A DNA stretch of 64,000 nucleotides from Ohtaekwangia sp. (GCF_036568665.1 NZ_DATCSD010000313.1:1569-65568), one strand, 5' to 3'. Positions 20,780-37,217 are shown, numbered from the stretch's first letter. Numbers and translations: made by a program. The notes: generated by a model from the sequence alone, not told the origin.

Positions 20780-23700
20780 ATGAGGGCACAAATACTTCAA
20801 TTTCTGGATGTCAAGAGCGGTGAAGGCACCCGCGTGGGGCTGCTGCTCATCATGAGCTTTTTCATGGGCGTTTTTCTGGCCACGATTAGTGTAGCCTCAC
20901 AAACACTTTTTCTCCAACACTTCGATGAAAAAACCGATCTGCCAATAGCCCTCCTCGTTTCCGGTGCCTTTGGTCTGGTAGCGACCATCCTCTATAACTT
21001 TTTACAGAACAGAATCCCGTTTCAACTGCTGGCGATCATCAGCCTCTCCGTTGTAACAGCTCTCACAGCCTTTATCGAGTTCGGTGAAATCTTTTTCAAC
21101 GATTCCAAAACCATCTTCTTCCTCGGCTTTACGCAGATCATTCCGTTCTCATTTATACTATACCTGGTGTTCTGGGGTGCATTTACCCGGATGTTCAACC
21201 TGCGCCAGTCCAAACGCCTGGTGGGTACGGTGGATATAGGCGGACTTATCGCTTCGTTCATCGCCTTCTTCTCGATTCCTCAATTGCTTAACCCTCAAAT
21301 ATTCTTCAAGGGAAAAGAAGGTATATCCGTAGAATCGTTATACACTTTTTCGCTGCTAAGTGTTGCTTTGTTCCTGCTCACGTTCATGTACCTCTCCGTA
21401 AAATACCTGAGCAAGGGAAAGACCTTCGCAGAAGAGAAAGCCATCTATCAGAAACTCCGTTTCAACGACTTCCGGCAGAACCGCTATATATTTTATATGT
21501 CGCTGTTTGTAGTGGCCTCCATGATCGCGCTGAACTTCGTTGACTACTCTTTCCTGAACGTAACAACACTATATTTCACCGACCAGGACGCGCTGGGAAG
21601 CTTTATCAGTTACTTTGAAGGTACCATTGTGATCTTCAGCTTCCTGTTCCAGACTGTAGCTACTGATCGTATTATACAGGAATATGGCATGCGCGTATCG
21701 CTGCTGATCAGTCCGCTGCTCATTGGTTTCTTTACCATCTGCGCGATCGCGCTGGGTATAGTGTTCGGATACTCTCCTGCCGATAATCTGTTTGTGATCT
21801 TCTTTTTGATTATCGCTATCAGTAAATTGTTTATACGCTCGCTCAAAGATTCGCTCGATAACCCGACCTTCAAACTATATCTGCTTCCGATCGAAAGCCA
21901 CATACGCATTGACGTGCAGACCAAGATCGAAGGAATTGTTACTGCCTTTGCCAGTTTGCTGGCCGGTGCGCTTATCATTCTTATTAACCGCGTAGAGATA
22001 TTCGATCTCCTCTATATTTCCATCTTTACTTTCCCCCTGTTAATCATGTGGTATATCGTATCCAACCGCATGCATACCAATTACCGCTATACCTTGCAAG
22101 ATACCTTGTCGCGCAACAAGTCGCGTATAGCCGGTAAAGCAGAGAAGAGTTATACCGTAAGCACCGTGCTTGAACAAGAGATCAACAGCACCGCAGAGGA
22201 TAAAGTATTGTATGGATTAACGCTGATGGAGAAACTGGAGCCTGCTGTTTTTGAAAGCACCGTAATGCGGCTGGCCAACAGCGAATCCAACGTGATCCGT
22301 AAATATGCACTTGAAAAAATAGAAGCACTTGGTCTACAGTCCGACAGTGGCAAGAACGAAATACGTTCCCTCGCAGAGCGTGCGTATGGCGAACTGGAAG
22401 ACAGCGACCTGCTCTCTATATCTCCTGAAAAATTACTCAAGCTCAGCAAATCCGTTAAGCAATCAGACCGTATACTTTCGGCCAAGTTGCTGCGGAAACT
22501 CATCAGTCAGAAAACTATATTTATCCTGCTGGAGTTACTGCGCGATGCCGATCCAAAAGTTCGCTACGAAGCGCTATATACCGCACGCAAAGTAAAACGC
22601 CAGGAAACATGGCCGGTGCTGATCGAGTTACTCGGCTCTCCATCCTATAGCCACCACGCTGCAGCTGCCTTGAAAGAAGTAGGCGAATCGGTATTGCCAA
22701 CACTCGAAGCTGCCTTCCATAAATCAGGGCAAAGCGACCTGGTAATGCTGCGCATTATACAGATCATGGGTCGTATAGGAGGTCGCTACGCATTACAACT
22801 GCAATGGAAAAAAGCAGACTACCCGGATAAGCGCATTGTTAAACAGATACTATATTCTCTTCGCTATCAAAATTACCAGGCACGCGGTAAAGAGATACGC
22901 GATGTAATAAACCTGCTGGAAGGGGAGATCAGCAAAGCACTCTGGAACCTGGCCGCGTTGGATGAATTACCTCAAACCGATGAGTTCTTCTTTTTAAGAC
23001 AAGCCTTACAAGAGGAAGTATTAGACAATTACGACCAGATATATATGTTGTTGTCTATACTGTATGATCCACAGTCAGTACAACTGGTGCGCGAGAATAT
23101 AGAGACACGCGAGCCCGATAACATTGCTTTCGCGATGGAGTTGCTCGACCTGTTTATTGACCAGGAATTAAAACCCAAGCTGCTTCCGTTGCTGGACGAC
23201 TCTCCTACTTCGGTTAAGCTGAAACATTTACAACTTCACTTCCCGCGCGAAAGCTATAATCCGATACAGGTTATCAACTATATATTGAATCGCGACTTTA
23301 ACCTGAACAACCGCTGGACAAAAGCCTGCGCGATACATGCTTCTGCCTTTATAGCAGACTTCCGTATAAGCCGCGGGCTTGTAGCGCAGATGTTCAATCG
23401 CGATAAACTCCTGCAGGAAACTGCCGCGTGGGTGATCTATCATAAAGACCGGAAAGTATACGATACGATACTGCAGCGTTTACCGGAGCGCGATAAAAAA
23501 TTCATTGACTCATCGATCGAGAACAACCAGTTGCTGGATGGTTTGAACGATGGTTTCTTCCTGTGGATTGAGCTTGTAATGTTCATCAAACAGTTGCCGC
23601 TCTTCCAGGATATACATGGCACATTGTTAAGTGATCTGGCTGATAAAATTACACCACTCGATATGGATCGCAATGAGCGTATCAAGTTGGCGAATGATGC

Positions 23701-37000: not shown

Positions 37001-37217
37001 CATCAACATTCAATTACCGGAAGCAGCCAGGTATAGCATGCCGGTAAATCTGCTGGATGGCTTTGGTCGTGAAGTATACTCGAATGCTTTTGCTGCCGGA
37101 GAAAAACAGAAAGCGATCAACACCACCAACTATGCAGCGGGTATCTATATACTGCAGATAAAAGCTTCTAACGGAGAATTGGTTCGCAAAAAAGTTGTAC
37201 TCGCAGATAATCCGTAA
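31008..37217 (+). CDS. T9SS type-A CTD cargo, 2069 aa: FN3-like, Ig/PKD-like and Omp28-like domains
   Basis: Signal peptide; FN3-like units (IKLTW...YEFVIYPY; YYAAYATN..GT; YNDTGL..GTNYYY); PKD-like AWVFGDG; C-terminal VYPNPA...YAAGIYILQI...KKVVL. Confidence 0.85.
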   Translation: MNNFTRRFVFLFTLLAVGFSAFAQEPSSYPTSFAAATQDGTSIKLTWVGSTGINLPSNYLILARVVPGGTFTTPSDNTSVADDSDLSDNLGAQNVTAATLTYTFTGLATNKDYEFVIYPYKTGGATDPNFKNSAGAPTITASTKVPTVTSPTVTSIAEVSAILGGNVTSNNGNALTARGTVWKTSAGVTATDNATAEGGTGVGTFTHTRNALPSGVKIYYAAYATNVAGTGLSPEASFFTFSTVPDAQPGTVTATAVSSSQINLTFTAFNTIGNTNGYVILRRTGSAPATTSVQDGVAPGSLALGTSTLVTTITNGATTSYNDTGLSAGTNYYYAVVPFNWNTTDPETYNYKVGSGFTVDNDITFSASSDIILNGGTTDAIDYRTKQGTSLTSNGSNSISLATLQIRDGGSGTDVDNVGTRLTSLTIQLTNNSFVRQIGIFDGGTLIGSTEQTVSGSTVTFNLSGYDLSATDGGTNNFTIRATFQQNVTDNQPVHVTVTNAVAGNSAGVGSGFGAANAGGATTSTVVPATNLIDVDATTLAFLANPPNTPTATNFSLTVRAVDSRNNVDLDYAESVQLTSTPASGTLTAGAQSLTPTLSAGTFTWTQLQIDKANTYTLKASDGNLLDASGTVVITSAGVTITKPAPLSLCYGGTYQPLGNIVIKETDPSDFSGSGTVTFSLALPTGFEFDPTVTTAPTVSGSGSDITALSALSYQGSNIVQFSYNVSGTSNINTLTIAGLKVRYPGSTAPSGGSSITRIGGDAQVSGDPIGTVHGTVTASLGTAPASLGFTVSGDALVNPNETRFNKNSNPVRLDGSPSGGTFSGTGGVTQSGSDYYFNPSLLSAGNYNITYTYTDPSGQKCSFTYTKTFEVYVTNITNLQLQYCDNDNASPTLSVSPTYISSRYPGYVFDHFVYYDYSVGQVDITTPANNIFDPKLAAYQSVYANTEAVYGNYGIWIGFVVRHSVLTTLTSVEWQFVQIKRAPTVTFPISKTFFCADESPAIFTGSPANSNTTANDFFTASGGQQTSITSGGNPIVWTFNPATVSGITPGSPVSFNVTYTYTDPATACSNTSAAQIITVSARPSIVPTGNISPGTSVQICQGTALPNFTATTNAGTSYTWYSNNPPTNIVGSGDVFTPPVSNLIAGTSNFYVTRSINGCESTQAPLQLTVVVNASPAAPVSDFSREYCVNQNIPNSDLVVTGTNVRWYNANNGAFIIQTSNPTAASLGIDNTVANTYSFFATQTVNSCEGAPTKITITVKPLPSLDILASITDVNKICITGGAVIFEARDQGLPAPNGTWSGTGGIGSALVPNPPAGTVQLNPALLPPGGYTLHLVYMNPSTSCSNSKDLPITLLPTINPSVTVGTACNGFPVSITNNSAIVPNGSPTTIASTAWVFGDGASLVAGNGAVPAGTNTGRTTGTYFSPNHIFSGLGNFLMQYTMTTSDGCVVTPPQISVTVNPNPNSNFAWANVCYDAASGSNTNFLAATSNIPDANIQSYAWNFAKNNALTIGSATGGKTPTVSYSSIGTDSVQLIVTTTANCKDTVQKPVYIVPSYPAITEDNSYTQGFEAGTDGWIAGGTNSSWAWGHPAETIQSPGKVWDTNLTGVSNTGEQSWVLSQCFDFTQSEKPIISFDIWSDTPSGNDGAVLQYNENGNIENDNNWTVIGQIGQGTNWYDESGISSSPGNQSANDVGWTGIYGKWKRATFKLDNLIGKSNVVFRIAFASNLPRRDGFAFDNVFIGERTRTVLLESFTNSSAGANTKAHNDIFSAFSVNSPEIAKVEFHTAFPGEDPLNRANVEINNSRTAFYGITAAPAFALDGTIVNTLADLTQLYNDRVLTPSPLRIAINLVKDGDVVRIHTTLTNSSNDVVAAAGINAFTAIVEKTITDAAYLGSNGDTQFNFVAKELLPTAAGIKLTQDLNPGESFALPEVVWSDRNLLASGNGAVVVYVQSIVGGNKNVYQSKIVDATVEPELVTGIEHGLASQISVYPNPARGTINIQLPEAARYSMPVNLLDGFGREVYSNAFAAGEKQKAINTTNYAAGIYILQIKASNGELVRKKVVLADNP

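Follow-up and report, generated by a model that had tools for sequence, protein, structure and literature searches.

STAND NTPases and NLR-type switches are known from bacteria, plants and animals as cytoplasmic sensors. Some NACHT proteins with transmembrane (TM) regions may sense periplasmic signals (Kibby et al.). Here we describe a cassette of six genes, g1 to g6, all located on the plus strand between positions 20780 and 37217 of a stretch of 64,000 nucleotides (below, the whole stretch is called the window) from Ohtaekwangia sp., a soil Cytophagales bacterium. The cassette encodes an NTT-HEAT-cNBD membrane protein (g1), a protein with three TIR- or DUF4062-like domains (g2), an nSTAND1 NTPase with a TM helix and a WD40 propeller (g3), an outer-membrane (OM) barrel (g4), a propeller lipoprotein (g5) and a giant surface protein with a sorting domain for the type IX secretion system, or T9SS (g6). 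With moderate confidence, we propose that the six genes form one pathway: an NLR-like signalling device that spans the envelope, is resident in the genome and arose from TIR-STAND conflict systems. Taken alone, the physical layout has good support, and our confidence in it is above that in the full reading.

The nearest published counterparts cover parts of this cassette. In the supplement of Kaur et al. 2021, the inner trio g1-g2-g3 is listed as rows of a table that are not discussed, and the downstream genes are entered as question marks. This table includes a Cytophagales entry of 1054 amino acids, and the supplement also records a TIR+DrHyd protein followed by an nSTAND1(+TM)+BetaPropeller protein in Thioploca, Verrucomicrobia, Planctomycetes and Acidobacteria. 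In the main text of the same paper nSTAND1 is named once, as a counter-invader NTPase. Proteins built like g1 belong to the NTT-HEAT-cNBD fusions, which are monophyletic, widespread and uncharacterised (Major, Embley, Williams 2017, PMC5381601). DUF4062, also called NIR and named 'DrHyd' by the Aravind group, is a TIR-like NADase according to three 2026 preprints, one of which concerns PsAvs2 (bioRxiv 10.64898/2026.09.04.749371), and its activity requires a Glu in an acidic S-x-T...E-Y region (E87-Y88 in Eva01, E97 in KpSwz and E108 in PsAvs2). An earlier note on this DNA, made from the sequence alone, had stated that no described system has this composition, which is too strong in view of the inner trio in the supplement of Kaur et al. 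2021 and the fusions in Major et al. 2017. No publication that we came across treats the six genes as a unit or takes up the topology of this unit, its dead catalytic sites or the paralogue described below.

A conserved six-gene unit

Consecutive genes of the cassette are separated by gaps of 9, 2, 15, -4 and 90 nucleotides, and on recheck the reading frames and gaps were identical to those that the earlier note had reported for six co-oriented genes. The base composition is even over the whole region. A scan that used one genome per species yielded 221 relatives of g2, of which the best 80 loci (65-91% identity) form the close set, and about 100 loci were fetched overall. Genes g1 to g5 are syntenic in the 80 close loci wherever the contig reaches. 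The layout recurs in the approximately 100 fetched loci, down to 25-40% identity. Because the close loci share unrelated flanking genes as well, distant copies were examined. Of 20 loci from further genera of the same GTDB family, whose g2 copies are 28-50% identical to the g2 studied here, 19 have g2 next to g3, and the order g1-g2-g3-g4 is kept in most of these despite different flanks. In almost every locus g4 is followed by an open reading frame (ORF) of 390-470 amino acids with a lipoprotein signal and then by a giant ORF, of 1400 to more than 2800 amino acids, that encodes a signal peptide, and this pair persists even where the sequences of g5 and g6 stop aligning. The arrangement recurs far beyond chance. 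The earlier note had staked its proposal on synteny in relatives, and synteny is what the loci display: the six genes form a real conserved unit.

In genomes of the family, g2 and g3 are also found together almost without exception. Among 81 genomes of the family, both g2 and g3 are present in 49, g2 alone in one, g3 alone in three and neither in 28. The g2 type is rare beyond the family: approximately 220 genomes of the class include four that have it, and a phylum sample with about 390 non-family genomes includes two that have it at full length; the adjacency of g2 and g3 persists in loci outside the family. In two loci from other families, a TonB-dependent barrel replaces the small g4 barrel and is followed by the NTT-HEAT gene. 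The family size, counted as representative clusters (50% identity) that match at E <= 1e-30, is 2116.

A paralogous cassette (g3'-g4'-g5'-g6') is present in the same genome on contig C417 (locus L109, 6769-16107), directly after thrS-infC-rpmI-rplT. Its g3' is an nSTAND1-TM-WD40 protein of the same architecture that is 40% identical to g3, and it is followed by an OMP_b-brl_2 barrel, an ORF of 437 amino acids and a giant Ig/PKD ORF. This second cassette on C417 contains neither a g1 (NTT-HEAT) nor a g2 (TIR-like) gene. In relatives, the second cassette likewise lies after rplT or is directly preceded by an NTT-HEAT gene, and it never includes g2. An unlinked NTT-HEAT-cNBD paralogue that is 33% identical to g1 occurs on contig C452 (locus L110, 7955-11164, minus strand). 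Its cNMP_binding match of 41 bits is above the Pfam cut-off, and it is 63% identical to the copy linked to the second cassette in a relative. By this comparison, the recurring core consists of the STAND protein, the NTT-HEAT protein and the barrel, lipoprotein and giant protein, and g2 is an addition specific to the cassette studied here. Thus, g2 is probably an accessory rather than an obligatory relay step, because the paralogous cassette lacks a TIR-like gene. The presence of both cassettes suggests two insulated parallel pathways.

A separate observation concerns a locus of one family genome (L081, 14031-15491) in which an intact g2 homologue (44% identity) stands alone beside a PD40/OmpA gene and queA, with g1, g3 and g4 absent there. 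The sole STAND copy in that genome is of the second-cassette type and lies 180 kb from the g2 homologue.

The transcription signals of the window bear on whether the six genes are expressed together. The earlier note had described a single strong terminator that closes the unit. There are two strong hairpins, and the one missed lies between g5 and g6; terminator scanning and folding give it an 11-bp stem with a free energy of -20.4 kcal/mol and a z score of -5.7, followed by CACUUUUUAUA. The other hairpin, located after g6, is likely to act as a bidirectional terminator. A hairpin and T-run comparable to the g5-g6 terminator occur in just 5 of 65 related loci, by which measure this terminator is lineage-specific. 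The gap between g5 and g6 in relatives has a median of 49 nucleotides and is often -1 to 25 nucleotides. A scan for sigma-70 promoters returned fewer matches than shuffled sequence, and the sigma-70 motif is uninformative for Bacteroidota. Near-matches to the Bacteroidota -7 motif TAnnTTTG, strings resembling TATAGTTTT, are located at 20589-20600 (upstream of g1) and at 30972-30983 (32 nucleotides upstream of the g6 start).

One could argue from the strong g5-g6 terminator in this strain, and from the extension of close-relative synteny largely to unrelated flanking genes, that the inner-membrane trio g1-g3 and the surface trio g4-g6 are two independent units that lie side by side via inherited gene order. 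We regard this as highly improbable. The spacing of g3 and g4 is tight and their order is kept at 25-40% identity with different flanks, an OM barrel follows the STAND gene even when the barrel type changes, g3'-g4'-g5'-g6' stay together at a different chromosomal site, and the short g5-g6 gaps noted above are found in many relatives.

Predicted layout from the cytoplasm to the cell surface

The proposed device is built around g3. This protein matches nSTAND1 (PF20703) with 321 bits (cut-off 27.1, E 2e-95) and is also matched by WD40. Read from the translation, both Walker motifs are intact: GPSGSGKSS spans residues 52-60 and LVLVDQFEE spans residues 150-158. One strong TM helix is predicted, and the 15 residues on its N-terminal side include eight Lys or Arg and two Asp or Glu (net +6), compared with four and three, respectively, on the C-terminal side (net +1). 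There is no signal peptide on g3. Because the charges follow the positive-inside pattern, the signal peptide is missing and the NTPase needs ATP, the NTPase is predicted to be cytoplasmic and the WD40 propeller periplasmic.

The segment between the TM helix and the propeller is a helical stalk of approximately 140 residues that is rich in Ala, Glu, Lys and Gln. Stalk length is 138-146 amino acids in 68 close homologues (45% identity) and 124-152 amino acids in 23 distant ones (32% identity). At 0.15 nm per residue the stalk would measure approximately 20 nm, which is on the order of the periplasmic width. Weak TolA matches over residues 473-657 (20 bits versus a cut-off of 213, and 16 versus 59) mirror the shared composition of the stalk region.

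At the inner-membrane end of the cassette, the N-terminal domain of g1 contains about 11-12 hydrophobic, presumably TM, helices, and a search of PDB sequences matched residues 124-432 to the ADP,ATP carrier 9j3n (E 4.6e-7). When this N-terminal piece alone was compared with Pfam there was no match, including none to TLC. A distant g1 homologue (locus L105) does match TLC (PF03219; 25.4 bits, cut-off 21). The HEAT_2 matches of g1 reach 38-44 bits (cut-off 27.7), and its cNMP_binding match is weak (19.2 bits, cut-off 27.5, both Pfam). The 9j3n match, the HEAT repeats and the cNMP-binding-like C-terminal domain together make g1 a member of the NTT-HEAT-cNBD fusion family. The column that corresponds to the phosphate-binding Arg is occupied by Ala, Val or Ile in most of 83 homologues.

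The three downstream products are assigned to the outer membrane and the cell surface. The barrel of g4 belongs to OMP_b-brl_2 (Pfam, E 3e-18). The Cys that would be lipidated in g5 is invariant in 35 homologues, and the AlphaFold2 (AF2) model of g5 is a propeller (pLDDT 89.6, pTM 0.86), which Foldseek places nearest to the propeller of CylK (E 1e-14, TMq 0.71). After the lipid Cys, g5 homologues conserve a C-x-N-[IL]-E-D-A motif (window 29664-29690), which we take to resemble the acidic lipoprotein export signal used in Bacteroidota for delivery to the cell surface. The sorting domain of g6 matches Por_Secre_tail (PF18962) at 54 bits (cut-off 27) and TIGR04183 at 32.9 bits (cut-off 23). Thus, the domain calls of the earlier note hold on checks by Pfam, PDB and AF2, with the reservation that the 'TPR' label of g4 has a weak TssQ-like match as its only support. 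The note's placement of products in every compartment from cell surface to cytoplasm also agrees with the domain identities and predicted topology.

Sequence identity falls from the inside to the outside of this predicted layout. In the close loci, the juxtamembrane segment of g3 has a median identity of 94% and the NTPase one of 87%; the domains of g2 lie at 64-78% and those of g1 at 59-69%. The median is 70% for the N-domain of g4, which is thus better conserved than the g4 barrel (38%), with the WD40 propeller at 55%, the stalk at 45% and g6 lower still. Such a gradient suits a conserved cytoplasmic machine that is coupled to fast-evolving exposed parts.

The same outer parts could be explained by inside-out assembly or anchoring of the giant T9SS protein. 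Perhaps g4, g5 and the stalk of g3 tether g6 or regulate its display in adhesion or gliding, with the NTPase as a checkpoint and the NTT-like protein as a scaffold. In nearly all loci the place of g6 is indeed taken by a giant signal-peptide ORF that is poorly conserved in sequence, a separate giant protein accompanies each paralogous cassette, and the stalk is conserved in length and resembles TolA domain II. The g4 barrel also has a weak similarity to PorT/SprT; however, its score against the equivalog model is 28.9 bits, far under the cut-off of 125, and the common feature is the general OMP_b-brl_2 fold only. In addition, STAND NTPases are switches rather than motors, and in the loci of other families g2-g3 are retained together with a TonB-dependent barrel but have no giant gene in their vicinity. 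Cargo with a type A C-terminal sorting domain normally has no need of a dedicated barrel. We consider an assembly role improbable.

Table 1. Positions and domain composition of the cassette genes and hairpins in the window.
Feature	Position	Strand	Description
g1, 1065 aa	20780..23977	+	NTT(TLC)-like domain aa 1-447; HEAT aa ~450-905; degenerate cNMP-binding-like aa ~925-1055
g2, 481 aa	23987..25432	+	Three TIR/flavodoxin-like domains: D1 TIR-like aa 1-175; D2 DUF4062/NIR-like aa 185-340; D3 TIR-like aa 350-481
g3, 1044 aa	25435..28569	+	nSTAND1 aa 13-429; juxtamembrane aa 431-497; predicted TM aa 499-520 (nt 26929-26994); stalk aa 521-660; WD40 aa ~695-1000
g4	28585..29616	+	Signal peptide; helical (TPR-like) periplasmic N-domain aa ~20-110; OM beta-barrel aa 119-329
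g5	29613..30917	+	Lipoprotein (Cys18); seven-bladed beta-propeller
Intrinsic terminator-like hairpin and T-run	30901..30936	+	Hairpin 30901-30926; overlaps g5 stop codon
g6, 2069 aa	31008..37217	+	Secreted surface protein: fn3, Ig_7, PKD; type A T9SS C-terminal sorting domain aa 1990-2064
Hairpin after g6	37238..37267		-23.7 kcal/mol, z -6.7; T-poor tail; between convergent g6 and minus-strand gene

The cassette is flanked on one side by queA and a PD40/OmpA gene and on the other by genes for a phosphorylase, an MFS transporter and a LacI regulator, and its chromosomal position is the same across genera. The PD40/OmpA gene (18208-20538, minus strand) is divergent from g1 and encodes a protein of 776 amino acids with PD40 (TolB-like) repeats and an OmpA domain. 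It adjoins the cassette in most close relatives and not in distant ones, and we rejected it as a seventh member on the ground that it is non-adjacent in distant loci. Downstream, a small stand-alone HSDR_N_2 gene (type I restriction R-subunit N-terminal-like; 37267-37710, minus strand) is convergent with g6 and shares the terminal hairpin. The nearest public relatives of the source are Ohtaekwangia and Chryseolinea-type Cytophagales, and cultured carriers of the cassette include Ohtaekwangia koreensis DSM 25262.

Catalytic sites of g2 and the relation to conflict systems

The Pfam matches of g2 to DUF4062 and TIR_2 fall slightly under their cut-offs (23.4 bits versus 24.7 for DUF4062, PF13271), and many close homologues carry a precomputed PF13271 call and the NCBI name DUF4062. 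With a profile built from 42 sequences, D1 matches the TIR domains of TLR6 and SNC1, which represent the TLR and plant types. The AF2 model of g2 (pLDDT 82) consists of three beta-alpha domains separated by two disordered linkers. Foldseek aligns this model with TIR domains at TMt values of 0.55-0.65, which are diluted by the use of the whole three-domain chain as query, such that only the TIR matches are usable. The g2 profile found no solved DUF4062 structure among PDB sequences, and therefore the Glu-to-Gln equivalence proposed for D2 was set from the spacing of the motif, from where it falls in the fold model and from how the motif is described in print.

D2 retains the N-terminal DUF4062 motif (Y190-L-A...D197-L...R202). 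Its second motif reads S261-V-V-D-I-Q266-N267, and in a residue census Q266 is present in 105 of 106 homologues and N267 in 98 of 106. D1 reads SGHCLDH, which places His85 at the catalytic Glu site of the S-x-W-C-x-x-E motif at the start of helix alphaC. D3 reads W416-V-R-M-K420 and so has a Lys, kept in 102 of 106 homologues, at the Glu site. On these alignments all three g2 domains lack the catalytic Glu in this lineage and are pseudo-enzymes, as the earlier note had proposed when it called them pseudo-TIR. Since the non-catalytic Gln of D2 is kept so strictly, its conservation points to selection for a function such as binding without hydrolysis and not to decay. In three g2 homologues (L083 4395-5873, and those of genomes G052 and G075) a single in-frame TAA interrupts the gene, and these may be pseudogenes or assembly errors.

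The W...E motif of D1 is kept in six to eight homologues, every one of which is without the canonical six-gene layout. These loci include a genome with multiple copies (G309), one of the TonB-barrel loci (L101) and two others. Because the Glu of D1 persists only outside the six-gene layout, the six-gene form fits descent from an enzymatically active TIR-STAND conflict system. In one relative with an 8.5-Mb genome and five g2-type genes, a fusion protein of 1614 amino acids (L107 4401-9242) joins TIR, DUF4062-like and nSTAND1 domains, one TM helix and approximately 17 WD40 repeats. This fusion is further evidence that g2 and g3 are linked. It retains the TIR catalytic Glu, and the catalytic pair of its DUF4062-like domain is Gln-Phe.

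The cassette could instead act as an Avs- or NLR-type system for abortive infection against phages or predators, wherein the periplasmic WD40 propeller or the surface complex senses attack on the envelope, the STAND protein oligomerises and the NTT-like transporter causes a lethal or growth-arresting leak of nucleotides (ATP or NAD). The nSTAND1 clade and the TIR/DrHyd domains are predicted parts of conflict systems, and several defence systems, including STAND-based ones, have DUF4062 as a proven NADase effector. Locus L101, in which the Glu of D1 is kept, ends in a gene for a two-TM SLATT_1/SLATT_3/DUF4231 pore effector (14379-15326) directly after the NTT-HEAT gene. Evolution is fastest in the surface-exposed parts, and some genomes have five or six copies. 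We nevertheless judge an immune role to be unlikely. The catalytic Glu is lost from all three domains in this lineage, and the locus occupies a stable chromosomal site beside housekeeping genes across many genera. It is present as a single copy in most genomes, and its cytoplasmic parts are unusually conserved (80-97% identity for the NTPase in close loci), unlike fast-turnover defence genes. PADLOC reported no system, as the earlier note had expected, and gave only P-loop-level matches with E about 1e-3. A mobile defence island was also rejected as the leading reading on the basis of flank content, which consists of housekeeping genes, and positional stability.

Proposed pathway and comparison with known systems

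The reading that we prefer, a resident trans-envelope signalling device, can be laid out as a sequence of steps in which we infer the protein contacts, the course of the signal and its biological input and output. The earlier note had put forward, as a hypothesis, a relay in which a signal from outside would pass via barrel and lipoprotein to the WD40 propeller and on through STAND oligomerisation and a TIR adaptor to gating of the transporter. The g3 protein would place an nSTAND1 NTPase in the cytoplasm, cross the inner membrane once and hold its WD40 propeller in the periplasm on the long stalk. The most likely contact of the propeller in the periplasm is the conserved N-domain of g4, the dedicated OM barrel. 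The barrel and the g5 propeller lipoprotein would be associated with the fast-evolving giant protein g6 that is displayed through the T9SS. A change in this outer complex might alter engagement of the WD40 propeller and thereby trigger nucleotide-dependent oligomerisation of the STAND protein at the membrane. The output could then pass through protein contacts to g1, and g2 may serve as a non-catalytic adaptor or as a ligand-binding modulator. The module would be a vertically inherited signalling pathway in this lineage and not a mobile anti-phage island.

Several observations weigh against this proposal. Elsewhere, nSTAND1 proteins and TIR/DUF4062 domains alike are associated with conflict systems, and relatives outside the family retain the catalytic Glu of D1 and occur in several copies per genome. 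An acidic residue of D2, D264, is kept (Asp or Glu in 104 of 106 homologues), and a changed catalytic activity of D2 through this residue may be conceivable. In this strain g6 may be separately expressed, because a canonical terminator lies between g5 and g6. Finally, the cassette is missing from approximately 35% of genera in the family, and for this reason it is not essential.

A bolder version of the proposal, which we put forward tentatively as possible rather than probable, is that these are true 'transmembrane NLRs' of diderm bacteria. Perhaps the periplasmic WD40 propeller on its ruler-like stalk reads a complex of OM barrel, lipoprotein and polymorphic giant adhesin, and reports surface contact or damage to the cytoplasm. 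Each genome would have two insulated paralogous copies, the dead TIR/DUF4062 domains would serve as adaptors, as in animal TLR/MyD88, and the output would be NTT-derived. If this is true, the STAND concept would be extended to a conserved version with its sensor outside the cytoplasm, wired to OM and surface proteins. It would also provide the first functional context for two orphan families that are widespread, namely the NTT-HEAT-cNBD family, which is also found in cyanobacteria, chlamydiae and oomycetes, and the DUF4062/TIR proteins that lack the Glu. Moreover, it would be a bacterial case of immune enzymes converted into signalling adaptors.

The cassette can be compared with four known systems. 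It resembles Tol-Pal, and TolA in particular, in having an inner-membrane anchor and a long, Ala-, Glu- and Lys-rich helical periplasmic domain directed toward OM partners that include a beta-propeller. However, the TolA scores are far under the cut-offs, there are no TolQ/R partners and a STAND NTPase takes the place of the short cytoplasmic tail, and we treat the likeness as an analogy only. With the NTT-HEAT-cNBD family, g1 shares the NTT-like TM domain, the HEAT repeats and the C-terminal cNBD-like domain. It differs in that its cNBD is degenerate. The cNBD of the unlinked paralogue encoded elsewhere in this genome passes the Pfam cut-off. Gene neighbourhoods were outside the scope of Major et al. 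2017 (PMC5381601), and here g1 is linked to a STAND switch.

Avs or NLR-like STAND proteins with DUF4062 (NIR), such as PsAvs2 (bioRxiv 10.64898/2026.09.04.749371), also have a STAND NTPase, a C-terminal repeat sensor and a partner of the TIR superfamily or DUF4062. In the cassette described here, by contrast, DUF4062 is carried by a separate protein and has Gln-Asn in place of Glu-Tyr, the sensor follows a TM helix and a stalk and is predicted to lie in the periplasm, there are dedicated OM partners, and the locus lies outside any defence island and has no PADLOC hit. Judged as a potential Avs member, g3 has no fused effector, and the adjacent g2 has no catalytic Glu in any of its domains.

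The trio of Kaur et al. 2021 is the closest match, with the three domain architectures of g1-g2-g3 in the same order. To that trio, the present locus adds a predicted arrangement across the envelope, genes for an OM barrel and a lipoprotein, a giant gene for a T9SS cargo, catalytic residues that have been lost, vertical inheritance and a paralogue that has no TIR-like gene.

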